A DNA stretch of 64,000 bases from contig NC_064039.1 in assembly GCF_932526225.1 (NCBI RefSeq), positions 6,257,459 through 6,321,458 on the forward strand, read 5' to 3'. A program made the translations under genes and the position numbers. Numbering within the stretch: position 1 is the stretch's first letter; the number at the start of each line of letters is the position of its first letter. This document shows, one piece after another, positions 46,271 through 61,853 of this stretch. The stretch comes from Nematostella vectensis. Taxonomy: Eukaryota. The notes under the pieces were generated by a model, which was not told the DNA's origin, searched no databases, and worked only from the letters and a program-made list of their open reading frames with translations.

Positions 46271-46281
46271 GGTCTAAAGAC
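46271..46281 (+). promoter_or_regulatory. Degenerate early-type box GGTCTAAAGAC upstream of ORF 46301
   Basis: It lies 20 nt before the ATG and carries one mismatch to GGTTTAAAGAC. Confidence 0.3.
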
Positions 46282-46300
46282 GTATGAGACCCTAGATAAA

Positions 46301-46561
46301 ATGACATTAAAGACGGAGGTGAAGATTAAAAACGGTGCGGCTACCGCCGGCGGTTGTTCGGTGCCGGAGGTGAACGTGAGTAACACTGCGGATGCGGGGC
46401 CTGAACACTGCTGTTGTAACGCTGATTACTATGAAGACTCAGAATACGGAAGCTTCGACCCCGTTGGGTTTGTGGCCGGAGCGGCGACAATTGTCCTTGG
46501 TGTTCTAGCAATGTTAGTCTCCATGCCACGGTATGGCGAAAAAAGATGGGTGAGATACTAG
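46301..46561 (+). CDS. Element ORF: small tail-anchored membrane protein (86 aa), function unknown
   Basis: ATG-initiated ORF just inside the left TIR. It is preceded by the degenerate box GGTCTAAAGAC (46271..46281). It has a C-terminal hydrophobic helix, VGFVAGAATIVLGVLAMLV. Confidence 0.35.
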   Translation: MTLKTEVKIKNGAATAGGCSVPEVNVSNTADAGPEHCCCNADYYEDSEYGSFDPVGFVAGAATIVLGVLAMLVSMPRYGEKRWVRY

Positions 46562-46652
46562 TCCACGGATGTGGTGCGGAGGCTTTAGACCGCACCGCCC
46601 CCACGCGGACCCCTTCGGAAGTCTTAGCAACCACACACATCACACCCAGAGG

Positions 46653-46674
46653 GAGCTCGAGGGGCTAGCCTCTC
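46653..46674 (+). other. Palindromic motif copy GAGCTCGAGGGGCTAGCCTCTC (upstream of the TFIIB-like gene)
   Basis: Non-coding copy, ~30 nt upstream of the early box. Confidence 0.6.
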
Positions 46675-46701
46675 AGCTTCACATCTAAAAAAGCTTTTGA
46701 A

Positions 46702-46716
46702 AAGTGGTTTAAAGAC
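46702..46716 (+). promoter_or_regulatory. Early-type TATA-like box AAGTGGTTTAAAGAC (TFIIB-like gene)
   Basis: TTTAAAG starts 26 nt before the ATG at 46734. It is part of a 46-nt block identical to the PolB upstream region. Confidence 0.6.
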
Positions 46717-46733
46717 ATGAACAGTTTAATAAA

Positions 46734-47660
46734 ATGGAGGAACGAACAGTTGAACGTACGGCTGAAGATCGGTCACCACCACCATATAATATCCTCGGCG
46801 GACCGGTGCCTGAGATTAACGCCCCCACCCTCATGCCGGAATTTGCACTGTTTGACCGAGCCCTCACCGAATACGAGACTAGTAGAGCCTCCTTGGGAGA
46901 CGAGGATAGTAGTAACACCCTTTGCAATCATGGCGACCTAGTCACAGAGGACGGGGTCACTAGTTGCTTAGAGTGCGGGGAACAGATGCAGCGCGTGATC
47001 GCGCACGAAAGGGAATGGGGTTTTTACGGACATTCCGACGGCGAACGGTCTTCGGATCCAAGTCGGGTCCAGGTACGTAGGTCTGAGGATAGAAATATTG
47101 ACAAGGATGTGGAGAACATGGGTTTTAGCGGGGTAATTGTATCCAAAGCTAACGAGATATACACTCAGGTGACGAAAGGCCAGATTTTTCGCGGCGACCC
47201 ACGGAAGGCGGTCGTCTTTGCGTGTATCTACTACGCCTACAAGATGTCCGGTAAGTGTCAGACACCGAAAACCTTGATGGAAACTTTTGGATTGAGCAGG
47301 AAGAGTTGCCTTAAGGGTCTAAAAATCTTTAGTATTAACGTGCCTAAAGATTACTTACTACACGGAACGTCTCCCACCGTCGTGGACCACATTCACGATG
47401 TGATGGATAGATTCTCGGCGTCCCCCGCACAGAAGGGAGAGGTGGTCCAGCTCTACTACAGATCTAAGAACCGCTCGTCTGAGTTGAATCGCGCTCGCCC
47501 ACAATCCTTTGCGGTCGCTTTAACCTATTACTGGGTACGGCTAAAGGGGGTCGATATTACACTTAAAAAATTCTCCGAAAGAACGGGCGTCTCCGAGTTA
47601 ACCATCAGTAGGAAAGCGAGAGAAGTGGCCACAGTCCTGGGTACGCCTGGTGTGGTATGA
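46734..47660 (+). CDS. Element-encoded TFIIB-like transcription initiation factor (zinc ribbon + B-reader-like segment + two cyclin folds)
   Basis: 308 aa. CNHGDLVTEDGVTSCLECG..REWGFY..SDPSRVQ parallels TFIIB CPNHPDAILVED..ICPECG..SEWRTF..KDPSRVG. RGDPRKAVVFACIYYAYKMSG..TLMETFGLSRKSCLKGLKIF parallels the first cyclin repeat ([42 protein letters not shown]). RARPQSFAVALTYYWVRLKGVDITLKKFSERTGVSELTISRKAREV parallels the second ([38 protein letters not shown]). The comparison is from memory of the TFIIB sequence, not a computed alignment. Confidence 0.8.
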   Translation: MEERTVERTAEDRSPPPYNILGGPVPEINAPTLMPEFALFDRALTEYETSRASLGDEDSSNTLCNHGDLVTEDGVTSCLECGEQMQRVIAHEREWGFYGHSDGERSSDPSRVQVRRSEDRNIDKDVENMGFSGVIVSKANEIYTQVTKGQIFRGDPRKAVVFACIYYAYKMSGKCQTPKTLMETFGLSRKSCLKGLKIFSINVPKDYLLHGTSPTVVDHIHDVMDRFSASPAQKGEVVQLYYRSKNRSSELNRARPQSFAVALTYYWVRLKGVDITLKKFSERTGVSELTISRKAREVATVLGTPGVV

Positions 47661-47749
47661 TGTTTCCTGATTTCCAGAGAAATCAGGATTTCCAGAAAAC
47701 TGTCAGTTCGGAGTAGATGTGAATTAACACGTCTAAAGAAATTCGAAAA

Positions 47750-47764
47750 AAGTGGTTTAAAGAC
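47750..47764 (+). promoter_or_regulatory. Early-type TATA-like box AAGTGGTTTAAAGAC (ankyrin gene)
   Basis: TTTAAAG starts 26 nt before the ATG at 47782. Confidence 0.6.
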
Positions 47765-47781
47765 GTGGATGTAATAACAAA

Positions 47782-48606
47782 ATGGATATGCAAAGTGCTG
47801 GAAGTCTTACAAATCTCACCGTGGAGGATCAAGCCGCCACCTTAGCGAGGTGGGGAGCCGCAGACTTTGACGCCGTTATGGAGCGCGCGGCGTGGGAGGG
47901 GTGCGTCGAGACCGTGAGGTTGTGTAAGAGTTGGGGTGCGACGGATTTCGAAAAGCCGATGGTCAGGGCCGCAATGAACGGCCACACCGAGATCGTTAAG
48001 ATGTGTTGTGAGTCGGGCGCCTGTGACTTCGTGTATCCAGCGTCCATGGCCGCGAAAGGCGGGCACGTAGAGGTTTTGAAGGTGATGGGCGAGTATTGTG
48101 CCGACGGAGGAGAGGCCATGACCGAGGCCATGGGTGCTGCGGCGGCGGAAGGTCAGGTGGGGGTTGTTGAGTTGTTGATAGATCTAGGTGTCGATGTCGA
48201 TGTCGGTTGGGCCACCGCTGAGGCGGCGTACAATGGGCACGTTGAGGTTCTGAAGCTGCTGAGAGAAAACTTCTGGGAGTTTGACCCGGACTATGCTATA
48301 ACACCAGCCATCGAATCTCGCAACCTCGAGATTGTGAGGTTGTGCTTGGAGTGGGGCGCGACCGATCTCATTGTACATATGAACTACGCACGGTTTTGGC
48401 ATCTGCATAAGATTTTCGCGGTGCTACGTGCGGCGTGGGGGTGGAGTCTTGTGCATGAGGAGCTCCCGGAGAAGCTACACAAGGTGAGATTCCGTAGAAA
48501 GCTGGAGGACGAACTAATGCCAGTAGCTTGGCATCCGGACAGGTTTTGGGATTGGTGCATGGATGAGCAAGAGAAGGAAATGTTGGGAGAATGCTTCGCC
48601 AGGTAG
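47782..48606 (+). CDS. Element ORF: ankyrin-repeat protein with a Trp/Cys-rich C-terminal tail
   Basis: 274 aa with about 6 repeats bearing the ankyrin signature: AAWEGCVETVRLC, AAMNGHTEIVKMC, AAKGGHVEVLKVM, AAAEGQVGVVELL, AAYNGHVEVLKLL, ESRNLEIVRLCLEWGA. The tail is VAWHPDRFWDWCMDEQEKE. The early-type box lies at 47750..47764. Confidence 0.75.
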   Translation: MDMQSAGSLTNLTVEDQAATLARWGAADFDAVMERAAWEGCVETVRLCKSWGATDFEKPMVRAAMNGHTEIVKMCCESGACDFVYPASMAAKGGHVEVLKVMGEYCADGGEAMTEAMGAAAAEGQVGVVELLIDLGVDVDVGWATAEAAYNGHVEVLKLLRENFWEFDPDYAITPAIESRNLEIVRLCLEWGATDLIVHMNYARFWHLHKIFAVLRAAWGWSLVHEELPEKLHKVRFRRKLEDELMPVAWHPDRFWDWCMDEQEKEMLGECFAR

Positions 48607-48647
48607 ACGCCGACCGGCTAGAAGGCGGGTATCGCGTGTTGGATTGA

Positions 48648-48663
48648 AAAGTGATTTAAGGAC
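48648..48663 (+). promoter_or_regulatory. Early-type box AAAGTGATTTAAGGAC (zinc-ribbon gene)
   Basis: It directly abuts the ATG at 48664 and lies 27 nt before the second ATG at 48682. Confidence 0.55.
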
Positions 48664-49011
48664 ATGACCGGTTTGATAGAAATGGAGAACCAAACGGTGA
48701 AAGACTCGAAAGTATCCCCCGTAAAGCGAACAACGGATTATAAGTGTCTTCATGGCAGAGTGAAATATTATTGCAAAGATTGTCACGGATCGCAAATCTG
48801 CCCTCACAACCGGAGAAAAACGCGGTGCAGAGAATGTAACGGCGGTAGCATTTGTGAGCACAGACGAGCAAGATATGTCTGTAAAGACTGCAAGGGGAAA
48901 GGGATGTGTGAACACAGCAAACAGAGACCCTTTTGTAAGTTATGCGGAGGGTCTCAAATATGCGAACACGATAGACAAAAGCACCATTGCAGAACGTGTA
49001 ACGGAAATTAA
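48664..49011 (+). CDS. Element ORF: tandem Cys/His zinc-ribbon repeat protein (putative nucleic-acid binding)
   Basis: 115 aa with four tandem units of C-x-H-x(4-6)-C-x2-C-x-G-x3: CLHGRVKYYCKDCHGSQI / CPHNRRKTRCRECNGGSI / CEHRRARYVCKDCKGKGM / CEHSKQRPFCKLCGGSQI / CEHDRQKHHCRTCNG. It shares the N-terminal MTGLIEMEN and the promoter with the PolB gene. The functional start may be the second ATG at 48682. Confidence 0.6.
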   Translation: MTGLIEMENQTVKDSKVSPVKRTTDYKCLHGRVKYYCKDCHGSQICPHNRRKTRCRECNGGSICEHRRARYVCKDCKGKGMCEHSKQRPFCKLCGGSQICEHDRQKHHCRTCNGN

Positions 49012-49026
49012 CATTGACCCACTCAG

Positions 49027-49053
49027 TTTTGTAACGCGTCTCACGTTACAAAA
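49027..49053. terminator. Perfect 10-bp stem hairpin at the convergence point of the plus and minus gene blocks
   Basis: TTTTGTAACG-cgtctca-CGTTACAAAA, 16 nt after the stop codon of the zinc-ribbon gene. A role in 3' end formation is speculative. Confidence 0.3.
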
Positions 49054-49208
49054 CACATACATTCCTAATCACCCTAACAACTAGCGATTCTGAAAATAGG
49101 TTTTGTATTTACATTGAGAGTTCGCGGTCGCCAGGGTGGTCTGGTATGCACGTGAACAGGTATTGTCTTCTTGCGGTACGTCACATCCGTCCACATGCAC
49201 CCCGCATG

Positions 49209-50735
49209 TTACCGGAATAGATACCAAGCTAAACCAGCCGTAAAGGCTGTGATCGTGACAAGGTTATTTTCGTGCTGCGTGTTCGTGGGTTTAATCACGT
49301 CCGGCTTTGGGTTAGTTTTCGCCTCCGGTTCCGGTTTGTGAGCCGTGACTGACTCGGTATGAGGTAACACAATCTTTGAATGACCCATATTATGTTTAGG
49401 GATCGTTTTTATCTCGTTATTTATCGGATTCAGCCCCAGTTTCATATCAGTGGTGGCTTTTTGTAACTTGTTATTATAGCCAGCGATCGAAGTGTTGTTA
49501 TTTATCACAAGATACGATGGACTTAACCAACAGCCGAGGGCGAAAGCTAGGTCTAGTTTTTGTCTCGCCTGTTGTAAAGCAAACTGATACCGTTGTATAC
49601 TTTTCGATATACTGTTTTCCACCACCGCGCTTTCGAAGAGTTTCGTGAAGACCTGTTTCGTTTCCTGAGCTGAACCGCTATCGCCGACGATTGACGACCG
49701 GGTCTGAACTTGCGCGCCTAGAATACAGTAGACAAAGGCTTCGATGCTCTGGTTTATCCTAGACAACCCAGCTTTGGTTAACCCCATTGATTTTTCCGGA
49801 AAGAACCACTCATACTGAAACCCAGTTCTAAGGTCTTTCAGGTACTCGATCTCAAAGTGATTCATGTGTTCGTGGTCGCTTTTGGCAGCGTCCCATTCGT
49901 CGTGTAATTGATCAATGGTGCCATAAGGCTTATACTTGTCGTTAGAAGATGACAAGCCGTGATAATCATAATTATAAACGTTCCCTAACCCGTGATTTAT
50001 CGGTCTGAGGAACCGGAAATCGTCACCAGTTCGGAATTCTGTTCTTAGTTTTTGGTAAGCCGCTTCGCTGTAAAAGTTTTTATTCCAACTAAAGAGCCTA
50101 TCTTTTGGAAGAGGGCATTGTAGCTCGTTTAATATTCGTCTGATAGTGAAAATGATGTGAAATCTGTAGAATGACCCCACTTGAGAGTCGTCAATCATGT
50201 CACGCGTCACACCACATCCAGCAGTCGCGCAAAACATAGCAAAATTTAAGGCTTGACTCCAATAACTGAGGTTTGGGGCGTCGAGCCACCTACTAGCCTC
50301 CTTTGCTGTTCTGAATACTAGCAAGCTGTCGGTGAATATGTCCCTAAAAACAAAGTGTGTCTTCACCTTTGGTGTTATAAAAACATTAAAAGAGACGTAA
50401 TTATTTCTCGTAGGGTTTTCGTCCCACGGCAATATCTTGTACTCTGCACGCGCGTCTAGTCTGTATTGTTTTGGGAACCCAAACAGTTGCTGGATCGTTT
50501 CCTTGTATGCTTGTGTGTCGTCGGCGACTAGAAAATCCTGGATATTCTCGGGTTTCCAGCTATTACCAGGGAAGTGATATAACGTTTTGACTAGATTCCC
50601 ATTCTTGTCGAATGGATCGTATTCGTCCCCATTGAAAACGAATTGCACATTGCCGTGCCCGTCGGCAGAGAACCTGAAGCGTGAGTAGTAGGGGTACCTT
50701 TTCACAAATTCTGTAAACTTCATCTTATATGACAT
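49209..50735 (-). CDS. Element ORF: 508-aa protein of unknown function with a C-terminal transmembrane anchor
   Basis: Long uninterrupted ATG ORF in the minus-strand gene block. The box GATTTAAAAAC lies upstream at 50743..50755. The C-terminus NLVTITAFTAGLAWYLFR is hydrophobic. I recognise no family motif. Confidence 0.6.
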   Translation of the reverse strand: MSYKMKFTEFVKRYPYYSRFRFSADGHGNVQFVFNGDEYDPFDKNGNLVKTLYHFPGNSWKPENIQDFLVADDTQAYKETIQQLFGFPKQYRLDARAEYKILPWDENPTRNNYVSFNVFITPKVKTHFVFRDIFTDSLLVFRTAKEASRWLDAPNLSYWSQALNFAMFCATAGCGVTRDMIDDSQVGSFYRFHIIFTIRRILNELQCPLPKDRLFSWNKNFYSEAAYQKLRTEFRTGDDFRFLRPINHGLGNVYNYDYHGLSSSNDKYKPYGTIDQLHDEWDAAKSDHEHMNHFEIEYLKDLRTGFQYEWFFPEKSMGLTKAGLSRINQSIEAFVYCILGAQVQTRSSIVGDSGSAQETKQVFTKLFESAVVENSISKSIQRYQFALQQARQKLDLAFALGCWLSPSYLVINNNTSIAGYNNKLQKATTDMKLGLNPINNEIKTIPKHNMGHSKIVLPHTESVTAHKPEPEAKTNPKPDVIKPTNTQHENNLVTITAFTAGLAWYLFR

Positions 50736-50742
50736 ATAAGAT

Positions 50743-50755
50743 GTTTTTAAATCAG
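50743..50755 (-). promoter_or_regulatory. Variant box CTGATTTAAAAAC (ORF 49209..50735)
   Basis: It lies 9 nt before the first ATG at 50735 and ~21 nt before the second ATG (MSYKM). Confidence 0.4.
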
Positions 50756-50813
50756 TCCTTTACGCATCTCAATTCATAGATCCATCCGACGGGAGTTCTC
50801 TCGTACAGAAATT

Positions 50814-51419
50814 TCACCGAGCGGGTCGACTCGCCAGGTCTTTCAAAATCTCTTCTCTTACTGTTTCCCTCAGCTTGGTAATGTTTACGTTTTTTTCGTC
50901 CTCTCTTACCGACTTTTGACGGATCTGGAGCTTTAGAGCCTCAAACTTGTCCACCTCGTTCAAGATTAAAGAGAACTCTTCGTCTGATATTTTGTTGTCT
51001 TTTAAAGCTTTAGAGACCAGGTCGCGTATGCTATTTACTTTTGCCTTTGCCATCGCCGCTGTTTGGTCGTGCTTGGAGACTTTTTGCGACAGCCGTTTAG
51101 AAACCGCCGCACAGCCTACAGACGTAAGACCGAAAACACCGGCCAAAGCACCCAACGGAACTCCGACGACGATACCAAAACCTGACAGAGAAGTCCCCAA
51201 ACCACTAGACCCAAGAATGACGGATAAGAGTCCTAAGACCACACTTAACTTTGAAAACACGCTCTGCCCTCGTTTATACTTTTTCCTCACGTTCTCGTAA
51301 TGTTTAACTTCTTGCTCCAAACTTCCCAAAACATCGTGGGTCTTTTGGAGTCTGAAGTTATCACCCGAGGGGCTGACCCCTCGGGGTACGTTCGGGTAGA
51401 TTGAGTTGTACTCTTCCAT
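50814..51419 (-). CDS. Element ORF: two-pass glycine-zipper membrane protein with a C-terminal coiled coil (201 aa)
   Basis: Central segment LSVVLGLLSVILGSSGLGTSLSGFGIVVGVPLGALAGVFGLTSVGCAAV, followed by a charged helical tail. The box CACTTAAAGAA lies upstream at 51442..51455. Confidence 0.6.
   Translation of the reverse strand: MEEYNSIYPNVPRGVSPSGDNFRLQKTHDVLGSLEQEVKHYENVRKKYKRGQSVFSKLSVVLGLLSVILGSSGLGTSLSGFGIVVGVPLGALAGVFGLTSVGCAAVSKRLSQKVSKHDQTAAMAKAKVNSIRDLVSKALKDNKISDEEFSLILNEVDKFEALKLQIRQKSVREDEKNVNITKLRETVREEILKDLASRPAR
51366..51384 (-). other. Related palindrome CCGAGGGGTCAGCCCCTCG inside ORF 50814..51419
   Basis: It shares the GAGGGG-N-CCCCTC arms with the other copies and encodes PRGVSPS. 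Confidence 0.4.
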
Positions 51420-51441
51420 AGCTTTATTATGGGGAGAATTT

Positions 51442-51455
51442 ATTCTTTAAGTGAT
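51442..51455 (-). promoter_or_regulatory. Variant box ATCACTTAAAGAAT (ORF 50814..51419)
   Basis: It lies ~25 nt before the ATG at 51419 and overlaps the stop codon of the penton candidate. Confidence 0.45.
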
Positions 51456-52070
51456 TTCTAAAATTAGACGTATCGGGTAGAGACCGCGCTCTATTGTGTT
51501 TCCGTCACCACCCTTTATACTAAGACGGAGACTACTCACGTAACCGACTGATGTGGTGCTAACCCGTACCGGATCGCTTGGATTGAGGTATATCTTTCCT
51601 TCATCAAGCTCTACACTTGCTAGGATTTGTGAGGGCGCCCCTTGTTGGAGGGAGTCAGACGCGTTCACAAGATCGCAGTGGATAAAAATAGCCTCGTGAC
51701 CTATCATCTTTATCTCGTGGCGAGTGTTTGCTTCCAGCTCCCTGGTCTTGAGTCCTAACAGGCAGGCGAGCGGCTCATTCAACGCGACGTTCCGGTGAAC
51801 TTCGAGTGACGAGTCTCTAATAGAGACTGACTTTTCACCAAGACGCATACCCCCATCTATTTGACGTTTTAGCGTCTCGATCGTATACTGCCCCGCGGGG
51901 ATCCTAAGGATAATGTTCTCACCGTCGGAGACCGTTCCCTCGCTTGAGAGACTGTTACAACGATTATGAAACGCACATCCTCGCAGCGCGATAAACCGCG
52001 GCTTTTCAATAGGTTGTTCTAAATAGACAGTAAAGTCACCAACGTTTCCTTCAATGTAGAGTAATACCAT
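51447..52070 (-). CDS. Element ORF: candidate minor capsid (penton, single jelly-roll) protein, 207 aa
   Basis: The size, beta-rich composition and position within the morphogenesis block fit a Polinton minor capsid protein. The motif AIFIHCDLV..S resembles penton-like proteins I recall from invertebrate Polintons. No structure prediction was possible here. Confidence 0.45.
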   Translation of the reverse strand: MVLLYIEGNVGDFTVYLEQPIEKPRFIALRGCAFHNRCNSLSSEGTVSDGENIILRIPAGQYTIETLKRQIDGGMRLGEKSVSIRDSSLEVHRNVALNEPLACLLGLKTRELEANTRHEIKMIGHEAIFIHCDLVNASDSLQQGAPSQILASVELDEGKIYLNPSDPVRVSTTSVGYVSSLRLSIKGGDGNTIERGLYPIRLILEIT

Positions 52071-52073
52071 TTG

Positions 52074-53096: not shown

Positions 53097-53120
53097 TTCT
53101 TATTTTGTTTGAAAATAAGA

Positions 53121-53133
53121 AATCTTTAAGTCG
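53121..53133 (-). promoter_or_regulatory. Late-type box CGACTTAAAGATT (ORF 52074..53096)
   Basis: It lies 34 nt before the ATG at 53096. Confidence 0.5.
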
Positions 53134-53140
53134 TGCCAGC

Positions 53141-53557: not shown

Positions 53558-53574
53558 TTATTAATCAATCTATA

Positions 53575-53588: not shown

Positions 53589-53589
53589 C

Positions 53590-54981: not shown

Positions 54982-55005
54982 CTTATTTTGTAAGTAGACC
55001 AAGAT

Positions 55006-55020
55006 GTTTTTAAACCACTT
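55006..55020 (-). promoter_or_regulatory. Early-type box AAGTGGTTTAAAAAC (ORF 54454..54981)
   Basis: It lies 33 nt before the ATG at 54981 and directly follows a palindromic-motif copy. Confidence 0.5.
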
Positions 55021-55021
55021 C

Positions 55022-55043
55022 GAGGGGTCAGCCCCTCGAGCTC
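55022..55043 (-). other. Palindromic motif copy abutting the early box of ORF 54454..54981
   Basis: The reverse complement reads GAGCTCGAGGGGCTGACCCCTC, immediately followed by GAAGTGGTTTAAAAAC. Confidence 0.55.
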
Positions 55044-55670: not shown

Positions 55671-55691
55671 TCTTTTTGTATTATCACACAA

Positions 55692-55705
55692 GTCCTTTTT
55701 AATAC
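55692..55705 (-). promoter_or_regulatory. Variant box GTATTAAAAAGGAC (ATPase gene), overlapping the MCP stop codon
   Basis: It lies ~25 nt before the ATG at 55670. The MCP TAA stop codon is embedded in the box. Confidence 0.45.
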
Positions 55706-56937
55706 ATGATTGCTCTCAAATTCGAGTTCATAACCTCCATCAACGCGTCGGCTACTACAAACATGTAGCAGGTGATGTTTCCCGTTCCTCCAACTTTTCG
55801 TTTCATCTCGAGTTTTACTCCGTCTCGCGTGTTGTTCAAGACCAGACCTCCTCCGTGAATGCTGTTATCTGGGTGTGCCCTCAAGTCGACCCACAGAGCA
55901 AACTTGTTATTAGCGTAAAAATCCTTTTGCTTGACACCCTCTCTACCGAAACGTTTCTTTACCGACTCCCAGAGGTCCGGCGGTGTCATCCCCTTGGAGT
56001 AGAGACGGTTTGGCATGCCATCCACATTAATGTTGATCGATGTGATGCTTGGATTGACAAACTTTTCGGAATCCCTTGCTCCTCCGGTGTAGCTCTCTGT
56101 GAACAGGCACAATATCCCTGTCATTGACCTCCTCGGCAGATTAATGTGCTCGTTTATGACACCATCATTAGGTTTGGAGATGGTGAACGTTTTGTGGAGA
56201 ATGACGTTCTCGTAAAAGAATCCTCTACCAACCTGATAAGCCGACAACGCCTCACGAGCTAAGTATTCACTTGAGATGCAAGCATATTCCAACTCGAGGT
56301 TTGTGATTGTGTACGTTGGAGTCTTGACCGTGTCAGCATAAACAACGACGTCGGAAACTGGGGCTAGAGTAATTTCAAAGATTAGCGGATGAGGTAACGC
56401 CTTTGGATAAAAGACCCCATGCTCGCCGAGAATAGGATGGTCGAGTGGAATGCAGTACTTGGTGTTGTGAACTGCTGCAAGAGCTACTTCCTTAGCATCT
56501 GATGTCGCTTTGTCACCTGCATTTGTCCTGAGCTTCCTCATGTTCTCAGAGGAGATACCTTGTTTTATTCTATCCTCACGATCTTCAGCTTGTAAGTATA
56601 AGTCGTGATAGGTTTGGAAGAGATCGTATCTTTGAGTATCCTGTAGTGTTTCTCCACCGAAAAGAATCTTGAGCCTTGACACTAGGTTCCGGCCAACGTT
56701 GTTGACGAGAGTATTATTCGCGTGTCCTGTGACGTTTAAGTCAAATAGTAAGGATACACTACCTGGAACAATCACTACATTTTCAGCAAGTTTTGGAATA
56801 TTTATATAGAGGGTTTCTCCAGGACTTGCCGATGAGGGATTGAATGTAATCCGATTCAGCGACGATTCCGCTTTCAGGCCGAAGGGTTCCCGTGGGATCC
56901 TGTTTGGGTTAATTTTTTCTGATATCGCTTGTGCCAT
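55699..56937 (-). CDS. Candidate major capsid protein (double jelly-roll expected), 412 aa
   Basis: Its position is immediately upstream of the packaging ATPase. It carries a late-type box, and its size and beta-rich composition fit. No other ORF in the element is a better MCP candidate. The fold was not verified. Confidence 0.55.
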   Translation of the reverse strand: MAQAISEKINPNRIPREPFGLKAESSLNRITFNPSSASPGETLYINIPKLAENVVIVPGSVSLLFDLNVTGHANNTLVNNVGRNLVSRLKILFGGETLQDTQRYDLFQTYHDLYLQAEDREDRIKQGISSENMRKLRTNAGDKATSDAKEVALAAVHNTKYCIPLDHPILGEHGVFYPKALPHPLIFEITLAPVSDVVVYADTVKTPTYTITNLELEYACISSEYLAREALSAYQVGRGFFYENVILHKTFTISKPNDGVINEHINLPRRSMTGILCLFTESYTGGARDSEKFVNPSITSININVDGMPNRLYSKGMTPPDLWESVKKRFGREGVKQKDFYANNKFALWVDLRAHPDNSIHGGGLVLNNTRDGVKLEMKRKVGGTGNITCYMFVVADALMEVMNSNLRAIMY

Positions 56938-56961
56938 CTTTTATTTTAAGAAAAGAGAGAT

Positions 56962-56975
56962 AATCTTTAAATGAG
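56962..56975 (-). promoter_or_regulatory. Late-type box CTCATTTAAAGATT (MCP gene), overlapping the integrase start codon
   Basis: It lies 34 nt before the MCP ATG at 56937. The palindromic TTTAAA core sits in the 33-bp divergent MCP/integrase spacer. Confidence 0.55.
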
Positions 56976-57963
56976 TAACGAAAGCAGGTTATCAAAAATA
57001 TACTATTCCACCGATGGATACTGGAAAGGGTATTCAGCTATTTATAAGTTAGCTAGTGTCGCTAAAGTCAGTGAAGCCGAGGCTAAGAGGTGGCTTGAAA
57101 AACAGGCGTTGTGGCAGATCTATCTCCCAGCTCCAAAGTATGTCCCCAGACCGCATTGGACTGTGAATAAACCTAATCAGATTCACCAAGCCGATCTGTT
57201 GTTTATGCCCCACGATAACGTAGGCAGAAAAACCTACCGTTACGCGTTGGTCGTGATTGATATTGCCTCGAGATATAAAGATGCAGAAGCACTGACTACC
57301 AAGGATTCGAGTGGAATTGCTAAAGGGTTTGAAAAGATATACTCCAGAAAACTTAAATGGCCTCATACGGTGATTGTCGATCCGGGGACAGAATTTAGGG
57401 GAGAGGTAACGAAGATTATGAAAAAGAAGGGGGTTACCATCCAGCGAAGCGAAGCTGGGAACCATCGCGCACAGGCTTTTGTCGAACGCGCCAATAGAAC
57501 ACTGGCGGAGAGGTTGTTTTCTTATCAGTATGCTCAAGAAATGATTAGCGATGATCGGTCCAGAGTTTGGGTGAAACGATTGCCAGATGTTTTGAAGACT
57601 CTGAATAGTCAACCCATAAGAATTACTGGCAAAGAGCCTGTAAAATCTATTGGTTTGAAAGAGGTTGATATTGACCCTCCAACGTATAAGCGGCCTGTTG
57701 GACTTGACGAAGTTAGACTACCACCAGGGGTTAGAGTTAGATATCTATTAGCTCCTGGAGAAGAGGAAGGAGGTGAACGCAGACGAGCCACAGACCCCAT
57801 TTGGAGTTTGAAAGTGTTTGATCTATCACGCAGTGTTGTTTCGGTTGGGCAGCCTGTGTTGTACTACCTCTCCGAAGGCGCTCCAAGGAGGTCGTTCGTT
57901 AGGGAAGAACTTCAAGTCGTCCCTGAAGATACTGAGCCACCACCTAATAGCGTTCTGAAATGA
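56971..57963 (+). CDS. Retroviral-type (rve) DDE integrase
   Basis: The catalytic-core pattern is HQADLLFMP..(D), VIVDPGTEFRG (D), AQAFVERANRTLAERL (E), with typical spacing. The C-terminal beta-rich tail (VLYYLSEGAPRRSFVREELQVV) looks chromo/SH3-like. Confidence 0.9.
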   Translation: MSNESRLSKIYYSTDGYWKGYSAIYKLASVAKVSEAEAKRWLEKQALWQIYLPAPKYVPRPHWTVNKPNQIHQADLLFMPHDNVGRKTYRYALVVIDIASRYKDAEALTTKDSSGIAKGFEKIYSRKLKWPHTVIVDPGTEFRGEVTKIMKKKGVTIQRSEAGNHRAQAFVERANRTLAERLFSYQYAQEMISDDRSRVWVKRLPDVLKTLNSQPIRITGKEPVKSIGLKEVDIDPPTYKRPVGLDEVRLPPGVRVRYLLAPGEEEGGERRRATDPIWSLKVFDLSRSVVSVGQPVLYYLSEGAPRRSFVREELQVVPEDTEPPPNSVLK

Positions 57964-60900
57964 CCGTGAGCGAAGGTGTGAATACCATCATCACAGATGA
58001 CCCGTTTATCATCCTCATGAGATAGAGCGACCTTGTTCACCGTTTCAGTGTAAACATCATGCTTATGACTTCTGATGACATTCATAAGTCTCATCTGAGG
58101 TTTCTTACCAAATAAGCAATCCTTGTAGTCATCGAAACCGATGCTCTTCTTGACGACTGCTCTCTTGACGCCCTTGCATTTCTTTTCTTCTTTACCTTCA
58201 TCCATCTTGTACGAGTAAAGTTTGGCCCTCAGTCCTACAAATTCTGTGATTTGCTGGCCCCCAGCCTCATCTTTAAACATTCCGATGACTTTCTTGTTCA
58301 CACCCACCTCAATACCAGATGGGTGACCCTTCGGAAAGTTGCTGGTGTCGAACATGGACCTCACATCCCCGCTGATGTCCTCGTAAAAGTCTTTCGTCTC
58401 GATCTCATACATCAGGCTGTCAGTATCAGTGAATAAGAGCTTTGCATCCTCACCGTACTTAGGCTTGACGAAGTTGTAGTGGAAATCGTACATGAGCGTC
58501 TTACTCAGGTCCAGAATGGACATACCCAAGTAGACAGGCTTGTTGAAGATCAGCTTTGTCTTCTTCATGTGGATGGCGGCTAGATTCTCGCAAAAGATGG
58601 TGCGATGTTGATAGTTCGGCTTTGATATGAGCTTCTTGGCCTGCTTCTCGTCCGTCACCAACCGAATGTCCACCCTGTTCCTAATGTTCTCCATAGTCTT
58701 ACCAAAGACGGAGTTGTTCATTAACTTGAAAAAATCTTTCTCAAAATCGTTTGTCGCCTTGGCTCTCAGATCGGTGTTCAAGTCAATGTAGGGCTCCAGC
58801 CAAGCAGACTCCTCAAAAGTGACACCCCTGTGAATCTTGGTGACTTTTAGCCCAAAACTCACATAAAGTCTCAGAGTCTCATGGTGGATAACGTACTTTG
58901 TCTTGTCGTTAAGGTTGGGGACCAACTTGTCCACATTGCCTAGCCCGATAGATTCCGGGGCTAGTGGGTAATCGTTGTGTAAGTCATGTAGGTGGTGAGG
59001 GTACTCCAAGTCAACCTCCAGAATGCATGGGCGGTCTCTCCAACCTGACAGCTCTTGGTCACCCATCCACCTGAAACCGTGAGTCGGTAAAGGGTTGCTC
59101 ATCGCCCAGCCATACAAATTGTTAGCATCAAGGTAGGTGATATATTTTGTGGGTAGGTCAGGGTCATACTCCTTCATGTAAGGGTTATTTGCCTCCCCAT
59201 GTCTGTTGCTTATCATGGAGACACCCCCACGGATGCCCTTCTCAATCATGAGCAACATGTCATAGTCCGTTAGAAGCTCTAGCCTCACCTTGGTGGTCTT
59301 CAACGCTGCATCCCAAGCCAACCCTGGCGCTGTGTAGTACCAAGCGGGGTCCAGACCGTAATTCTTGAGACAAACGTCCCTAAAGTTCTCGAAAACGTCA
59401 GCTAAAAGCAACACATCCGACTCTAGGTACAGATTGTGGTAATCCCTCATGGTCCCCATCCCAAAGGCCTCCCACACTCTCCGCGCGTGCAGGTGATCCT
59501 CCTCCGATATGTCGGTGTCGTTGAGTTTGGAGTGGAACGCCTCTCTCTGTGGGAGCTGTGTTGCGTCGAGCTTGCTAAAGCCGTCGAACCAGTCGTAAGG
59601 GAAAACACCCTTCCTCAACAACAGCTGAAGCTCCTCCCCCTCATAGTACTCCGCCAGGTTTTTGAAGCACTCCCTTGACATATTACCCACTAGACTGTCG
59701 AGACTGGCCGACATAAACCTGAAACTGTCGATAAATCTGATATCACGTTTAACATCAATCTTGTTGCCCTCCTTGTTCGTGAAACTGTCGACTACAATCT
59801 GTTTTGTGAAAGAAATATACTTTTCCTCGTTATTAGGTATACAGTTTATTTTACCTTCCGATGTACCAAGGTTCTTGATAAATAGATGGCTGTCGTACCC
59901 AGACAGATTGTGAAAGATAACAGGAAAGAACTTTGGAATTTTGTGATCTAAGTTGCATGCGTTGTGAGCAGCACCTCTGTACTTCCCTGTAAGGTGGCAA
60001 TGGTCCAAAACCTTGTCTTCCCCTAATTCACCCTCACAGATGTGGCAGTGAGTGGCGTCGTTATAGGCGATTTTGTCCTTCGGAGTCATTTTCACCTTCT
60101 TAGGGAACCTGAACTTATCATAAATTTTCTTAATGTCTGACTCCAAAGACTCTACGAAAAGCTGTGGGATATCTTCGTCTGGAGATTCAGCTGTGTATCG
60201 TACAAGCTCGGATGGGGATATATCTCCGTCGAAACACTTGATGAGATAGCAGAAACCAGACGGTTTGTGTTTCTGGTATTGCTTAGTGAAGCTTTTACTC
60301 TCATCTGGGGAGCATGTGTCTATATTCTCTGTGAAGCTCTCAAAGTCGGCGTAGACAACAAAGGGGACACGCATTTTTCTGTTGTAGTTTTTGAATTTAA
60401 TGTGGGGTAGATTTCCATCCTTATCTATCTTAGGCATCTCTATTCCAACCGCTTCATGATTGCCGCAGCATTCAGAATGTTTTTCTAATGATTGTTTGCA
60501 CCGAAACGAGTTCAGACATCTACAGCATAAAAAACGAGTATGATGAAACTCATCAATTTGAGTAGATACTAATCTCATCATATTCTTTATCCAGCAGTAA
60601 TGATTCGTCTCATCATCCGAGATGAGAAGTAAGTTGATTGCATTATCTGGATCCTTCTCACTGATTCTCAATGGATATATTTTGGTTTCGTATCCAAACA
60701 CATTAACCGTATACTGGTTCTGTTTCTCGAACTTGTCAATCTGTTTTAGTGAGACGGGGAACTCTATCCCTGACCAGTCGAATTTCTCAGAGCTCTCTAT
60801 CATTTGTTTACTGAACCTTTGAGGATCTTTCTCCCTAGGATACACAGCAGAGGTTACTGCCCACTTGAAACATTCGTGATCATTCTCGTTCTTAACATTG

Positions 60901-61838
60901 ATGATCGCCTTCTTAGACGCTAGTTTCAGCGGCAGCGGAATATAGGAAGACCCAGAAAGCGGTTCAAAGGGATCTATGTTGATGTCAAAGTATTCCACTT
61001 GGTCAAACTGCCATCCGGAGCCTTGCTTCTGGAACAGCTCAACTAATCCGAGTAAATAATTTGTCATCGTATCGAACAAATCAGAGAGATCAGTCGACTC
61101 TGTCACAATCTCGGGCTTCTCTGTATGAAAATATCCCAGTTCTTCTTCGATCTGAGCTGTAGCCGGATCCTCTTTTATAAACCCGCAAGTAAAGATAAAC
61201 TTCACTTTGATAGGCTTTTTTTGTCGACTGATGAGCTCTAAGACTTTCGGTTTGATTCTGGCGATGAATGTCTTGGGGTCGTAACCTCTCTGCCCGGCTA
61301 TTCCGTGGGTTTTAAGATACCCCTTCAACGCCGTCTGTTGTTCCTTGGGTGTGAAGCGATCTTCCACCTCCTCGTGTAGACGCTTAATCCTCTCCTTCAG
61401 ACGTTCGACCCGTTTATCTGCAGCCTCTTTGACGGTCTTTTTGACGGGCTCGGGGACATAAGATAGTATCCAATCCGCAAACTTGTCTAACTCGCTCTTG
61501 ATCAAGTTGGCCGCCCTGTTTGCAAAATGCTTGAGTGATTGGACGCGGGAACTCCGTGGGGGTTGGGAGGGTTTTAGAATAGGGACATTAATCTCAGGTA
61601 TCGGGCCGTCGAGAATACTCTCCGACGTGTTGGACGGGGTAATGCGGGGTGGTCGTGGCAGCCCTTTGACAAGTTTGGGTAAAGGAACCCGTCGGGGTGG
61701 TGGTGGTGGTGACGTGCTGGTCAGCGCCCCGACGAGCTCGTCTCTCCGCATCCAGTAATATCTTGGGATACCCCGCTCCTTGGCGAGGGCTTTCAGATCT
61801 TTCACCTTCAGGTTCTCCATTTCTATCAAACCAGTCAT
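57912..61838 (-). CDS. Protein-primed family B DNA polymerase with a long N-terminal (terminal-protein-like) region and a SAP-like motif
   Basis: 1308 aa. Pol motifs: YLDANNLYGWAM (A), KLMNNSVFGKTME (B), LLFTDTDSLMY (C). Exonuclease region: VVYADFESF. N-terminus: LKVKDLKALAKERGIPRYYWMRRDELVGAL (SAP-like). The early-type box lies at 61839..61853. The functional start may be the second ATG at 61820. Confidence 0.95.
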   Translation of the reverse strand: MTGLIEMENLKVKDLKALAKERGIPRYYWMRRDELVGALTSTSPPPPPRRVPLPKLVKGLPRPPRITPSNTSESILDGPIPEINVPILKPSQPPRSSRVQSLKHFANRAANLIKSELDKFADWILSYVPEPVKKTVKEAADKRVERLKERIKRLHEEVEDRFTPKEQQTALKGYLKTHGIAGQRGYDPKTFIARIKPKVLELISRQKKPIKVKFIFTCGFIKEDPATAQIEEELGYFHTEKPEIVTESTDLSDLFDTMTNYLLGLVELFQKQGSGWQFDQVEYFDINIDPFEPLSGSSYIPLPLKLASKKAIINVKNENDHECFKWAVTSAVYPREKDPQRFSKQMIESSEKFDWSGIEFPVSLKQIDKFEKQNQYTVNVFGYETKIYPLRISEKDPDNAINLLLISDDETNHYCWIKNMMRLVSTQIDEFHHTRFLCCRCLNSFRCKQSLEKHSECCGNHEAVGIEMPKIDKDGNLPHIKFKNYNRKMRVPFVVYADFESFTENIDTCSPDESKSFTKQYQKHKPSGFCYLIKCFDGDISPSELVRYTAESPDEDIPQLFVESLESDIKKIYDKFRFPKKVKMTPKDKIAYNDATHCHICEGELGEDKVLDHCHLTGKYRGAAHNACNLDHKIPKFFPVIFHNLSGYDSHLFIKNLGTSEGKINCIPNNEEKYISFTKQIVVDSFTNKEGNKIDVKRDIRFIDSFRFMSASLDSLVGNMSRECFKNLAEYYEGEELQLLLRKGVFPYDWFDGFSKLDATQLPQREAFHSKLNDTDISEEDHLHARRVWEAFGMGTMRDYHNLYLESDVLLLADVFENFRDVCLKNYGLDPAWYYTAPGLAWDAALKTTKVRLELLTDYDMLLMIEKGIRGGVSMISNRHGEANNPYMKEYDPDLPTKYITYLDANNLYGWAMSNPLPTHGFRWMGDQELSGWRDRPCILEVDLEYPHHLHDLHNDYPLAPESIGLGNVDKLVPNLNDKTKYVIHHETLRLYVSFGLKVTKIHRGVTFEESAWLEPYIDLNTDLRAKATNDFEKDFFKLMNNSVFGKTMENIRNRVDIRLVTDEKQAKKLISKPNYQHRTIFCENLAAIHMKKTKLIFNKPVYLGMSILDLSKTLMYDFHYNFVKPKYGEDAKLLFTDTDSLMYEIETKDFYEDISGDVRSMFDTSNFPKGHPSGIEVGVNKKVIGMFKDEAGGQQITEFVGLRAKLYSYKMDEGKEEKKCKGVKRAVVKKSIGFDDYKDCLFGKKPQMRLMNVIRSHKHDVYTETVNKVALSHEDDKRVICDDGIHTFAHGHFRTLLGGGSVSSGTT

Positions 61839-61853
61839 GTCTTTAAACCACTT
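61839..61853 (-). promoter_or_regulatory. Early-type TATA-like box AAGTGGTTTAAAGAC (PolB gene)
   Basis: It abuts the ATG at 61838 and lies 27 nt before the second ATG at 61820. Confidence 0.6.

Follow-up and report, generated by a model that had tools for sequence, protein, structure and literature searches.

Virophages adopt the promoter motifs of their giant virus (PMC11998528; bioRxiv 10.1101/2022.07.28.501842). Zamilon, a virophage without a transcription factor of its own, up-regulates TFIIB more strongly than any other megavirus gene (PMC11464507). In virophages, expression of replication genes precedes that of morphogenesis genes, with a single motif (PMC11464507). A giant-virus factor, VLTF3, is carried by coral polintoviruses (PMC11131425).

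We analysed a window of 64,000 nucleotides from Nematostella vectensis (NC_064039.1), which contains a Polinton-like integrated virus with 16 genes and only 7% intergenic sequence (Table 1). The flanks of the element are animal chromosome, and it is bounded by a TCCCTCA target-site duplication (45743-45749 and 62383-62389), with termini that read GTAGTAGGG.../...CCCTACTAC. The related family is found at very high copy number in animal-size (Mb-size) contigs. This abundance, with 4980 members in one MCP cluster, looks like autonomous germline spread.

Each gene of this element has its own TATA-like box, with the consensus (G/C)(T/G)(G/A)(T/C/A)-TTTAAAG-A(T/C), located 26-35 nt before the ATG when counted from the first base of the 7-nt core. 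The initial annotation had described such boxes for 15 of the 16 ORFs, with the integrase as the exception. All the boxes that it listed are present, and the count is 16/16, as the integrase has one too. Exact GTGGTTTAAAGAC sites are found at 46704, 47752 and 61839(-), with variants at 46269, 48651 and 55006(-), and TTWAAGATY sites, all on the minus strand, at 53121, 53576, 53840, 54335 and 56962. A separate group of looser variants at about 20-25 nt does not exist: GAC-type boxes lie at 26-28 nt, and the rest at 27-35 nt.

Table 1. Positions of the element, its terminal repeats, gene-start boxes and hairpins in the window.
Feature	Position	Strand	Sequence	Distance to ATG (ATG position)	Remarks
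Polinton-like integrated virus, whole	45750..62382				16,633 bp; read from inverted repeats and termini
Left terminal inverted repeat	45750..46261				23/36/59-nt tandem units (CCTGTCAATCACTTTGTCA, CGTG after some)
Right terminal inverted repeat	61894..62382				tandem units as in left repeat
Giant-virus-type TFIIB gene	46734..47660	+			308 aa; Pfam TFIIB E = 1.5e-8
orf86 box	46273..46279	+	TCTAAAG(AC)	28 nt (46301)
TFIIB-like gene box	46708..46714	+	GTGG-TTTAAAG-AC	26 nt (46734)
Ankyrin (Ank) gene box	47756..47762	+	GTGG-TTTAAAG-AC	26 nt (47782)
Zinc-ribbon (ZnR) gene box	48655..48661	+	GTGA-TTTAAGG-AC	27 nt (48682)
508-aa ORF (orf508) box	50745..50751	-	CTGA-TTTAAAA-AC	28 nt (second ATG, 50723)
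orf201 box	51445..51451	-	CTTAAAG(AAT)	32 nt (51419)	overlaps orf207 stop
orf207 box	52091..52097	-	TTTAAAA(GG)	27 nt (52070)	within last orf340 codons
orf340 box	53124..53130	-	CTTAAAG(ATT)	34 nt (53096)	followed by 12-bp hairpin, 53095-53123
orf138 box	53579..53585	-	CTTAAAG(ATC)	28 nt (53557)
orf74 box	53843..53849	-	TTTAAAG(ATT)	35 nt (53814)	abuts orf153 TGA stop
orf153 box	54338..54344	-	TTTAAAG(ATT)	33 nt (54311)	followed by 9-bp hairpin, 54312-54338
orf175 box	55008..55014	-	GTGG-TTTAAAA-AC	33 nt (54981)
A32-type ATPase box	55697..55703	-	ATTAAAA(AGG)	33 nt (55670)	overlaps MCP stop
MCP box	56965..56971	-	TTTAAAG(ATT)	34 nt (56937)
Integrase (INT) box	56945..56951	+	TTTTAAGAA, core TTTAAGA(A)	26 nt (56971)
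PolB box	61841..61847	-	GTGG-TTTAAAG-AC	27 nt (61820)
10-bp perfect hairpin	47665..47688	+			5 nt past TFIIB stop; candidate 3'-end signal
11-bp perfect hairpin	49026..49054				between convergent ZnR and orf508 ends; candidate 3'-end signal
8-bp GC-rich hairpin	55020..55039	-			between ATPase stop and orf175 box

Enrichment was measured with a pattern, [CT]T[TA]AA[AG] at 24-36 nt before the ATG, that was derived from giant-virus loci and not from the element. All 16 genes are positive, with 0.46 expected from the element's own background (binomial P = 1.9e-25). Background positives amount to 5.7% of all element ATGs and 3.6% of host-flank ATGs. De novo, every top enriched k-mer of the 60-nt upstream regions is a sub-word of TTTAAAGA, AATAA ranks after these, and TTAAAGA is found upstream of 9 genes, against 0.33 expected. 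In each direction of transcription, the leading gene (orf86, PolB, MCP and INT) has a box upstream, while a search of the convergent 3' region at 49012-49208, which follows the last genes of both arrays, returned none. The box thus marks 5' ends, not 3' ends.

Conservation extends to dozens of related elements, which have the box at orthologous positions. It precedes 10/10 genes in relative L003, 9/14 in L004, 7/13 in L007 and 5/10 in L008. In 65 further metagenome loci, it is present before MCP (29/42), ATPase (28/40), orf153 (14/16) and orf74 (11/14), down to about 40-60% MCP identity and with different spacers. Across the family, box-ATG distances are between 24 and 38 nt, with a mode of 30. 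Integrase orthologues have canonical boxes, for example TTTTAAAGAT in L003, and relatives have TTTAAAGA(A/T) before PolB and accessory genes. The persistence of the box while the spacers diverge points to a functional gene-start signal. The box is therefore a real element-wide signal, one per gene, as had been proposed from its recurrence, and is probably a core promoter. Given the fixed distance of 26-35 nt, it is reasonable to expect putative leaders of only a few nt.

As for giant viruses, we sampled 726 ORFs from 43 loci, all within 10 kb of a TFIIB gene, using a simple ORF picker. There, [CT]T[TA]AA[AG] peaks sharply at 25-32 nt before the ATG, with 87 sites at the 26-nt position, compared with about 13 at each position from 40 to 60 nt. 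Out of 4096 hexamers, the most position-enriched at 24-33 nt is TTAAAG (11.7x), followed by ATTTAA, TTTAAA, CTTAAA, TTAAAA, GTTTAA and TAAAGA, variants that the element itself uses in its boxes. AATAA(A/G) is present just before the ATG in both. The two sets of distances overlap without coinciding: the mode is 26 nt in giant viruses and 30 nt in the element family, and many morphogenesis genes of the element are at 33-35 nt. On the 3' side of the core, giant viruses are merely A-rich, whereas the family prefers GATT(T)CTTA. Giant viruses also have a distinct early class, AAAATTGA at -40 to -55, from which this RNA-polymerase-encoding group appears to be Imitervirales-like. Before the genes of the element, we found no AAAATTGA motif, except for one that overlaps the start codon of orf86.

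The TFIIB-like protein has a zinc ribbon and two cyclin folds, with a 33-aa N-terminal extension that is exclusive to the element. It has 264 homologues, of which the five most similar (83-96%) are genes annotated in Nematostella. Every other homologue examined is on a giant-virus contig, with Rpb2, RNA_pol_N, P9 minor capsid protein or NIF phosphatase as neighbours, or on a contig named GVMAG. Identity to these is 45-71%, and the match to human TFIIB is marginal (27.5 bits, E = 1.8e-5). The Nematostella clade is nested within the giant-virus clade in the tree and retains every family-invariant residue in the alignment. Sequence relationships thus show a gene captured from the giant-virus group by the Nematostella lineage of the element. 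About 70 related loci have the box but none of them encodes TFIIB, so the box is older than TFIIB. This speaks against the earlier suggestion that the element's own TFIIB is the reader of the box.

Perfect hairpins are concentrated between genes, with 6 of the 8 having stems of at least 8 bp in the intergenic part of the element. The giant-virus loci share this concentration (3.17 intergenic hairpins per kb with stems of 9 bp or more, compared with 0.25/kb in shuffled sequence). Canonical poly(A) signals are few in both. In the element, AATAAA or ATTAAA is near the stop of 4/16 genes, and of none at an array end.

Taken together, the box, the AATAA-rich patch at the start codon, the hairpins between genes and the near lack of AAUAAA match the architecture of a large group of RNA-polymerase-encoding giant viruses. 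The shared box and distance, and a TFIIB from that same group, suggest that the element may be wired to giant-virus transcription. Our preferred reading, to which we give an even chance, is a virophage-like promoter architecture of giant-virus type, read by giant-virus-type transcription. Each gene would be transcribed separately, with a leader of a few nt, and the reader of the box would be a giant-virus-type pre-initiation complex with TBP/TFIIB-type factors. Integrated in the anemone genome, the element would remain mostly silent until the cell is co-infected by such a virus, as in mavirus-type endogenous virophages, and its own TFIIB copy might then raise or redirect transcription. If true, a Polinton in an anemone genome would be tied to giant-virus transcription, as virophages are. 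To our knowledge, no giant virus of sea anemones has been described, and none was found in this analysis.

A serious rival, possible though we would not call it probable, is that host Pol II transcribes the element in the nucleus from a TATA-like box bound by Nematostella TBP, with very short leaders. TFIIB would then be a captured accessory factor that takes the place of host TFIIB at the boxes or competes with it, and the likeness to giant viruses would reflect only the common TBP/TFIIB basis of both systems. The core is short, AT-rich and TATA-like, and could converge in any TBP-dependent system. Insertion into an animal chromosome, marked by a target-site duplication, the high copy number in Mb-size contigs and the box in relatives without TFIIB all agree with this. 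The family mode of 30 nt fits the classical TATA-start spacing of about 30 nt, if leaders are a few nt long, and the 9/16 starts that are ATGG, often AAGATGGC, resemble TISU, a short-leader translation context. TTTAAAG-like TATA variants are functional with TBP, such as the Entamoeba GTATTTAAA(G/C) box, and chloroviruses, which encode TFIIB homologues but not an RNA polymerase, rely on host Pol II; both precedents favour a host reading. Against it, boxes at 26-27 nt would place a start 30 nt downstream on or after the ATG, and canonical poly(A) signals are almost absent. Per-gene promoters in spacers of 30-80 nt are typical of large DNA viruses of the cytoplasm rather than of viruses that use Pol II in the nucleus, and the most position-enriched giant-virus hexamers match the element's variants in detail. 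Compatibility of this TFIIB with host Pol II is doubtful, given its marginal cellular likeness and its source in viruses with their own polymerase. The metazoan TATA analogy drawn in the initial annotation is less apt than a giant-virus or virophage gene-start motif, as the TFIIB is of giant-virus type and the giant viruses of that group have the box at a near-equal distance from the ATG.

That annotation also divided the boxes into two temporal or functional classes, GTGG..GAC and ..GAT(T/C), read by the element's TFIIB. GAC/AAC-type boxes do precede orf86, TFIIB, Ank, ZnR and PolB (plus orf175 and orf508), at 26-28 nt for GAC, and GAT-type boxes precede MCP and membrane-protein genes, mostly at 32-35 nt. 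The order of virophage expression is also in line with it, even if a single motif is used there. Nevertheless, we find this division unlikely. The first class is largely one duplicated segment of about 90 nt, promoter and leader included, before TFIIB, PolB and ZnR, with similarity over about 70-115 nt that extends into the first codons (MTGLIEMEN in ZnR and PolB), which argues for recent duplication rather than an independently maintained motif. Its flavour is absent from relatives, whose PolB boxes are of the TTTAAAGA(A/T) form and none of which encodes TFIIB, and orf175 and orf508 have the AAC flavour inside the morphogenesis array. The truly distinct early class of giant viruses is AAAATTGA, and by giant-virus standards all 16 genes fall into one class. 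Much less probable still is a termination or polyadenylation signal of the preceding gene, or a slippery recoding site. Several boxes overlap or abut the upstream stop, some with a hairpin after them; however, orf86, PolB, MCP and INT have a box without a same-strand gene upstream, none follows the last genes of the arrays, and the distance is fixed to the downstream ATG, not to the upstream stop. Frameshifting would lack a substrate, as the upstream ORF has mostly ended before the box. Finally, the core is a low-complexity A/T hexamer, and loose TTWAARR is equally frequent in host flank and element, as expected of a compositional artefact of AT-rich intergenic DNA. The chance of this is negligible: it is refuted by the enrichment (P about 2e-25), by the sharply confined distances and by retention of the box at orthologous sites across dozens of diverged elements.

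Genes and boxes are closely packed. The stops of orf153, orf207 and MCP fall within or abut the box of the next gene, an overlap that had been noted before. For the 508-aa ORF, the second ATG is the likely start. Strong hairpins in the box-to-ATG spacer are limited to a few genes. The complement of the MCP box includes the first base of the integrase ATG, and this region is a putative bidirectional promoter.

Repeat analysis delimits a Polinton-like integrated virus with TIRs of ~510 and ~490 bp and a 7-bp target-site duplication, TCCCTCA, directly abutting both termini. ORF translation reveals 16 tightly packed genes, named here by product or, as in orf86, by length in aa. The integrase (INT) matches Pfam rve with E = 9.9e-8 and 32.6 bits, a score right at the gathering threshold, and its orthologues in related elements carry the rve annotation too. 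TIRs, target-site duplication and rve integrase are those of a Polinton/Maverick-type integrating virus (Polintoviricetes, or a PLV with integrase). The ATPase matches Pox_A32 (E = 3.7e-11). The capsid gene MCP has a weak Capsid_N match (E = 0.0036, below threshold), and several of its 755 homologues have a precomputed match to PF16903. From these matches, the element would also have the double-jelly-roll MCP and the A32/FtsK-type packaging ATPase of such viruses. The ankyrin gene has Pfam support. No adenain-type or cysteine maturation protease domain was found by Pfam in any element ORF, which is typical for PLVs, less so for classical Polintons.

The 1302-aa polymerase gave no polymerase match in Pfam, PHROG or PDB sequences, only Endonuclease_7 and Rho_N domains. 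Inspecting the translation by eye, we recognise Exo I-III motifs (YADFES, NLSGYDSHLF, YLESD) and motifs A, B and C (DANNLYGWAM, KLMNNSVFGK, FTDTDS). In our reading of these motifs it would be a protein-primed PolB.

Features of the element and its host flank, with positions in the window
Feature	Position	Strand	Remark
Element	45750-62382		16,633 bp
orf86, TFIIB-like, ankyrin and Cys-rich zinc-ribbon (ZnR) genes		+	
Ten genes, MCP through the 508-aa ORF		-	
rve integrase			divergent from MCP
Polymerase (putative PolB), 1302 aa			adjoins right TIR
TIR arrays	45886-46199; 61956-62242		tandem units of 23/36/59 nt
GAGCTCGAGGGGCTRRCC copies	46653; 61885(-); 55026(-); 53885(-); 54077(-); 54917(-)		always on the local gene's sense strand
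TFIIB N-terminal extension	46734-46832		aa 1-33
Promoter and first codons, ZnR	48664-48700		MTGLIEMEN
Promoter and first codons, PolB	61820-61838	-	MTGLIEMEN
Convergent 3' region	49012-49208		
Hairpin CATCTTATATGACATATAAGATG	50721-50743		10-bp perfect stem
Second candidate ATG, 508-aa ORF	50723		
Tandem repeat TGCTCAAGAGCTTGCTCAGGTG	54353-54486		6 copies, ~22-nt unit
Rfam mir-9460 match	57195-57262	+	inside integrase ORF
Peptide ILDGPIPEINVPIL	~61560-61620		PolB N-terminal region
Duplicated host-flank ORF	8509-9006; 12945-13397		
Intronless ORF	17231-18664		477 aa
Low-complexity repeat	36268-37357		proline/serine-rich

All 16 genes carry a [CT]T[TA]AA[AG] box 26-35 nt before the ATG, against 0.46 box-positive genes expected (P = 1.9e-25). 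Both this pattern and the interval tested, 24-36 nt before the ATG, were taken from giant-virus data, independent of the element. The background share of box-positive ATGs is 5.7% in the element and 3.6% in the host flank. K-mer enrichment in the 60-nt upstream regions places only sub-words of TTTAAAGA on top, with AATAA next. The boxes listed in the initial annotation were all found where it had placed them, and the enrichment over background that it called for is borne out. Its claim that the integrase lacks a box does not hold, as TTTTAAGAA sits 26 nt before the integrase ATG and orthologues have canonical boxes.

The spacer between MCP and integrase would be a bidirectional promoter, with two opposed boxes that each overlap the start region of the other gene. 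A box is also present ahead of the first gene of every array (orf86, PolB, MCP, INT), where no upstream gene exists, and none occurs in the convergent 3' region; the box therefore marks gene starts. These same two observations speak against a poly(A) or termination signal, which we rejected. A frameshift signal was rejected too, as the upstream ORF has mostly ended ahead of the box. For the 508-aa ORF, the box spacing favours the second of two candidate ATGs. Both ATGs lie within the perfect hairpin CATCTTATATGACATATAAGATG.

In terms of known motifs, the element consensus TTTAAAG, fixed in position relative to the ATG, does not conform to the metazoan Pol II TATA box, which has the consensus TATAWAAR and lies ~28-33 nt ahead of the transcription start. 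The mimivirid early promoter, AAAATTGA or AAAWTGA 40-60 nt before the ATG, is found at none of the element genes; its matches in the element are limited to the TIR units (pointing outward), ORF interiors and an overlap with the orf86 start codon. The Megamimivirinae late promoter, searched within 100 nt of the ATG as [AT]8 T[AC]T N4 [AT]5 [AG]TA[TG]A (pattern from PMC11464507), gave 0 matches in the element with up to one mismatch allowed.

The initial annotation had split the boxes into two promoter classes, of a GTGG..GAC and a ..GAT(T/C) flavour. This division was not sustained. The GTGG..GAC flavour is largely one ~90-nt segment, made of a GC-rich motif, CACATCTAAAAAAGCTTTTGAAAAGTGGTTTAAAGACATGA and a leader, that is duplicated before the genes for the TFIIB-like protein (TFIIB) and PolB; a shorter copy, first codons included, precedes the zinc-ribbon gene ZnR. 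Related elements carry TTTAAAGA(A/T) before PolB and accessory genes. Because of the duplicated segment and this form in relatives, we recognise one promoter type with lineage-specific flavours, rather than two conserved classes. AAAAGTG(R), found upstream of the GTGG-type boxes, was tried as a variant early motif and rejected, with 11 scattered sites and no positional peak in giant viruses.

ZnR and PolB have the duplicated promoter and their first codons in common. ZnR homologues elsewhere are longer (150-190 aa), and some start with a Rho_N (SAP-like) domain, also present at the head of PolB; the ZnR of this element looks like a truncated Rho_N-plus-zinc-repeat protein. It is the sole family-wide candidate for a DNA-binding protein. 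An origin of ZnR as a giant-virus gene was discarded, none of its 249 homologues having a giant-virus context. The 18-nt GC-rich, partly palindromic motif GAGCTCGAGGGGCTRRCC occurs in 6 copies against 0.04 expected, of which three closely precede GTGG-type boxes, two are within orf153 and one is within orf175.

Next, the 755 MCP homologues come mostly from ENA assemblies with Mb-size contigs. An MCP identical to that of the element is present in the metagenomic data sets JGI 3300021297 and SRR25950197. Two scans of IMG/VR, with the single protein and with an alignment, returned no MCP relatives, so this collection of viral sequences appears to lack the family. Comparison of copies within the Nematostella genome covered L001, L002 and L052. 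Syntenic relatives have diverged spacers but retain the box at orthologous genes (10/10 in L003, 9/14 in L004, 7/13 in L007 and 5/10 in L008). Across 65 further metagenome loci it precedes MCP in 29/42, the ATPase in 28/40, orf153 in 14/16 and orf74 in 11/14, and is retained down to ~40-60% MCP identity. The conservation at orthologous positions that the initial annotation had predicted is thus confirmed. Box positions across 168 distinct upstream sequences from relatives are restricted to 24-38 nt, 30 nt being the mode.

The lineage of L005 has the box at 24-36 nt in just 2 of 12 genes; several genes have the motifs AAGATTCTT and GAATCGAAGATTCTTAAG instead. L005 is a very high-copy sister lineage, from an ENA contig of 1.2 Mb, and its MCP cluster P0066 has 4980 member sequences. 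The MCP-integrase spacers of one subfamily (L056, L057, L059, L064, L068 and L092) show TTTAAAGC followed by ACTCTAAA ~10 nt before the MCP ATG. ACTCTAAA is the integrase box on the opposite strand (TTTAGAG), so the bidirectional two-box arrangement is conserved.

The giant-virus sample comprises 43 loci, whose ORFs of at least 90 aa amount to 726, with 667 distinct upstream regions. Both TTTAAA and [CT]T[TA]AA[AG] peak sharply 25-32 nt before the ATG, with a mode at 26, where 87 sites are found compared with ~13 per position at 40-60 nt. Approximately half of the genes sampled carry the box. When all 4096 hexamers were compared between 24-33 nt and 45-100 nt before the ATG, the top ones were TTAAAG (11.7x), ATTTAA, TTTAAA, CTTAAA, TTAAAA, GTTTAA and TAAAGA, with TCTAAA listed too; these exactly match the box variants of the element. 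TATAAA and other A/T hexamers reach ~1.5-2x only. The box distance modes of the giant-virus loci and the element family differ by ~4 nt. Giant viruses and element alike show a concentration of AATAA(A/G) within the 10 nt that immediately precede the ATG.

The giant viruses have a second motif, AAAATTGA or AAAWTGA, with its peak at -40 to -55. It is found at the genes for TFIIB, thymidine kinase, primase and RNA polymerase, and 17 giant-virus TFIIB genes are in this early (AAAWTGA) set. The TTTAAA class contains P9 minor capsid, VLTF3, NIF, kinases and glycosyltransferases. No positional peak was seen in these loci for TCTA, the late motif of CroV and mavirus. AAAATTGA is known as the early motif of mimivirids and mesomimivirids (bioRxiv 10.1101/2022.07.28.501842), and from it, as sole marker, we infer that the viruses sampled are Imitervirales-like and that TTTAAAG is a non-early promoter class in them.

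The TFIIB gene (Pfam TFIIB, E = 1.5e-8) has 264 homologues. The closest, at 83-96%, are NCBI entries named [quoted passage not shown] on contigs of 18-22 Mb. Those outside Nematostella are ~275 aa long and lie on contigs with Rpb2, RNA_pol_N, minor capsid P9, NIF phosphatase, WW-UCH, SOD and HMG-box genes. Furthermore, 40 IMG/VR loci match, most of them named GVMAG (giant-virus metagenome-assembled genomes). Identity to giant-virus proteins is 45-71%, and human TFIIB matches with 27.5 bits. The Nematostella proteins keep the CxH...CxxC and all invariant columns of the alignment, and an NJ tree with midpoint rooting places them within the giant-virus clade. With a zinc ribbon, two cyclin-like repeats and a sequence nearer to NCLDV than to cellular proteins, the element TFIIB belongs to the NCLDV family.

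By tblastn, no TFIIB was found in any of the related elements searched, and no other element protein matched the giant-virus loci. Given its giant-virus affinity and its absence from related elements, TFIIB was therefore captured from a giant virus by the Nematostella lineage, which implies co-infection of one cell at some time. The N-terminal extension of the element TFIIB, absent from giant-virus homologues, contains PPPY and ILGGPVPEINAPTL, and the N-terminal region of PolB holds the very similar ILDGPIPEINVPIL; the two peptides may be a common docking or targeting motif. In two giant-virus loci (L009, L010), TFIIB has a gene for a WW-domain ubiquitin hydrolase at less than 10 kb distance, and WW domains occur in 4 proteins of the giant-virus box set. 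These are of interest because of the PPPY motif in the extension.

As for 3' ends, 6 of the 8 perfect hairpins of the element with a stem of at least 8 bp fall in the intergenic 7% of its sequence, each downstream of a stop codon. Hairpins at 47665-47688, 49026-49054 and 53095-53123 are candidate sites of transcript 3' ends. In the giant-virus loci, intergenic perfect hairpins with a stem of at least 9 bp reach 3.17/kb compared with 0.25/kb in shuffles (12.7-fold). Mimivirus mRNA 3' ends reportedly follow a "hairpin rule", attributed to Byrne et al. 2009. The perfect intergenic hairpins past stop codons, in both element and giant-virus loci, resemble it; however, the element has a downstream hairpin at only ~6/16 genes, and relatives have few. 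AATAAA or ATTAAA is near the stop codon in 4/16 genes, none of them at an array end. A hairpin in the spacer between box and ATG was considered and rejected as a general feature: it holds for orf508, orf340 (where it recurs in L003 and L004) and orf153, and is weaker for orf175, ATPase and INT, with a mean z of -0.59 (P = 0.058) across 41 promoters.

Virophages and PLVs are known to copy the promoters of their giant virus: Sputnik and zamilon have the mimivirus/megavirus late motif, mavirus the CroV late motif, and PgVV/Gezel-14T the PgV early motif AAAATTGA (PMC11998528, PMC11464507, bioRxiv 10.1101/2022.07.28.501842). The element, like these 15-20-kb elements, has one short motif at a fixed short distance before its genes, in its case 16/16, and the motif also stands before giant-virus genes. 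The 43 metagenomic loci in question bear the closest TFIIB homologues and stand in here for a hypothetical partner virus, with a distance mode displaced as noted. Unlike in virophages, the motif is TTTAAAG and not AAAATTGA, TCTA or the Megamimivirinae late motif, the host genome is that of an animal, and the partner giant virus is hypothetical. A giant-virus TFIIB of its own sets the element further apart, since according to PMC11464507 virophages have no genes for transcription factors.

The mavirus-type endogenous virophages of Cafeteria (EMALEs) are likewise integrated, with TIRs, rve integrase, protein-primed PolB (putative in the element), double-jelly-roll MCP, A32 ATPase and one promoter motif ahead of every gene, and a mavirus-type element is silent until its giant virus arrives (bioRxiv 10.1101/068312; PMC10945749). 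The element differs in that no cysteine protease was detected, its MCP family is confined to cnidarian-type assemblies, with no IMG/VR relatives, and its giant-virus dependence is hypothetical. A PLV-like MCP was described in Polinton-3 of N. vectensis (Krupovic et al. 2014, PMC4028283); the comparison with this element, from the same host species, is by published description. Exchange of transcription genes has a precedent in coral polintoviruses, which have VLTF3, a transcription factor of giant viruses (PMC11131425). Neither PMC4028283 nor PMC11131425 mentions a promoter motif or TFIIB, and a full-text literature search for TFIIB and polinton returned no report of a Polinton TFIIB.

We consider the architecture of the box to be of the giant-virus and virophage type. 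As a core promoter element, it would drive transcripts that are monocistronic and have very short leaders. The identity of the polymerase reading it is a separate matter. The chances seem evenly balanced that this is a polymerase of giant-virus (virophage-like) type, a reading based on the origin of TFIIB, the detailed match of the motif, the missing poly(A) signals and a virophage precedent, namely that the strongest effect of a virophage on the gene expression of its host virus is TFIIB up-regulation (PMC11464507). That host Pol II reads the box as a TATA-like element is less likely but a serious alternative, with several points in its favour: the box is older than TFIIB, animal genomes contain the family at high copy number, element family and giant viruses are ~4 nt apart in their distance modes, and convergence can produce a short A/T box. 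There is also a resemblance to the eukaryotic TATA box with TBP and TFIIB, as the element has a TFIIB homologue and its A/T-rich box precedes the start. In Entamoeba, variants of the TTTAAAG type act as TATA boxes. On the other hand, TTTAAAG is not TATAWAAR and is fixed to the ATG, the TFIIB is viral, and canonical poly(A) signals are mostly missing.

Building on the giant-virus-type reading, we tentatively propose, with more doubt than confidence, that the element is an endogenous virophage of an undiscovered Imitervirales-like giant virus, current or recent, of sea anemones. In the animal its TTTAAAG promoters would stay off, to be activated only by the polymerase of the giant virus; the captured TFIIB would divert this polymerase to the element. 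If true, animal Polintons of this family would be an inducible anti-giant-virus system, like mavirus in Cafeteria.

To our knowledge, gene-start motifs common to virophages/PLVs and giant viruses are known from protist systems only. Essentially nothing is known of transcription in animal Polintons/Mavericks, for which this family offers a uniform box per gene. The box and the Nematostella TFIIB are concrete sequence evidence suggesting that members of this family shared cells with giant viruses, and probably a transcription system. An old proposal holds that Polintons and virophages are one continuum and may defend against giant viruses; these findings make it directly testable in Nematostella, a laboratory model. 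Also defined by the results, for a large set of uncultured giant viruses, is a promoter class with TTTAAAG 25-32 nt ahead of the ATG; no description of this class was found in the searchable literature. Promoter sharing between virophages/PLVs and giant viruses was known already, as was VLTF3 exchange between giant virus and polintovirus (PMC11131425). As far as the searchable literature shows, the uniform promoter box in an animal Polinton family, the Polinton-encoded giant-virus TFIIB and the TTTAAAG class ~26 nt before the ATG in related giant viruses are new.

Some further features of the window were observed. The TIR arrays consist of units TGACAAA(A/G)TGATTGACAGG, with or without CACGTG, to which a replication or terminal protein may bind. 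They contain AAAATGA and ATTGA, resembling the giant-virus early motif, oriented outwards from the element. The 3'-terminal part of orf175 is covered by the TGCTCAAGAGCTTGCTCAGGTG repeat, as is the spacer that leads up to the orf153 box. The Rfam mir-9460 match (102.9 bits, above the gathering score) was dismissed as a conserved RNA: it recurs only in the near-identical copies L001 and L002, not in relatives, and its region folds no better than shuffles (z = -0.76). The annotated mir-9460 probably corresponds to a piece of the integrase gene, within a repeated element, that gives rise to small RNAs.

Lastly, the host flank contains a duplicated ORF, CUB-like in our reading, whose two copies are identical over ~140 aa, as well as a low-complexity repeat and an intronless ORF that reads like a UMP synthase.
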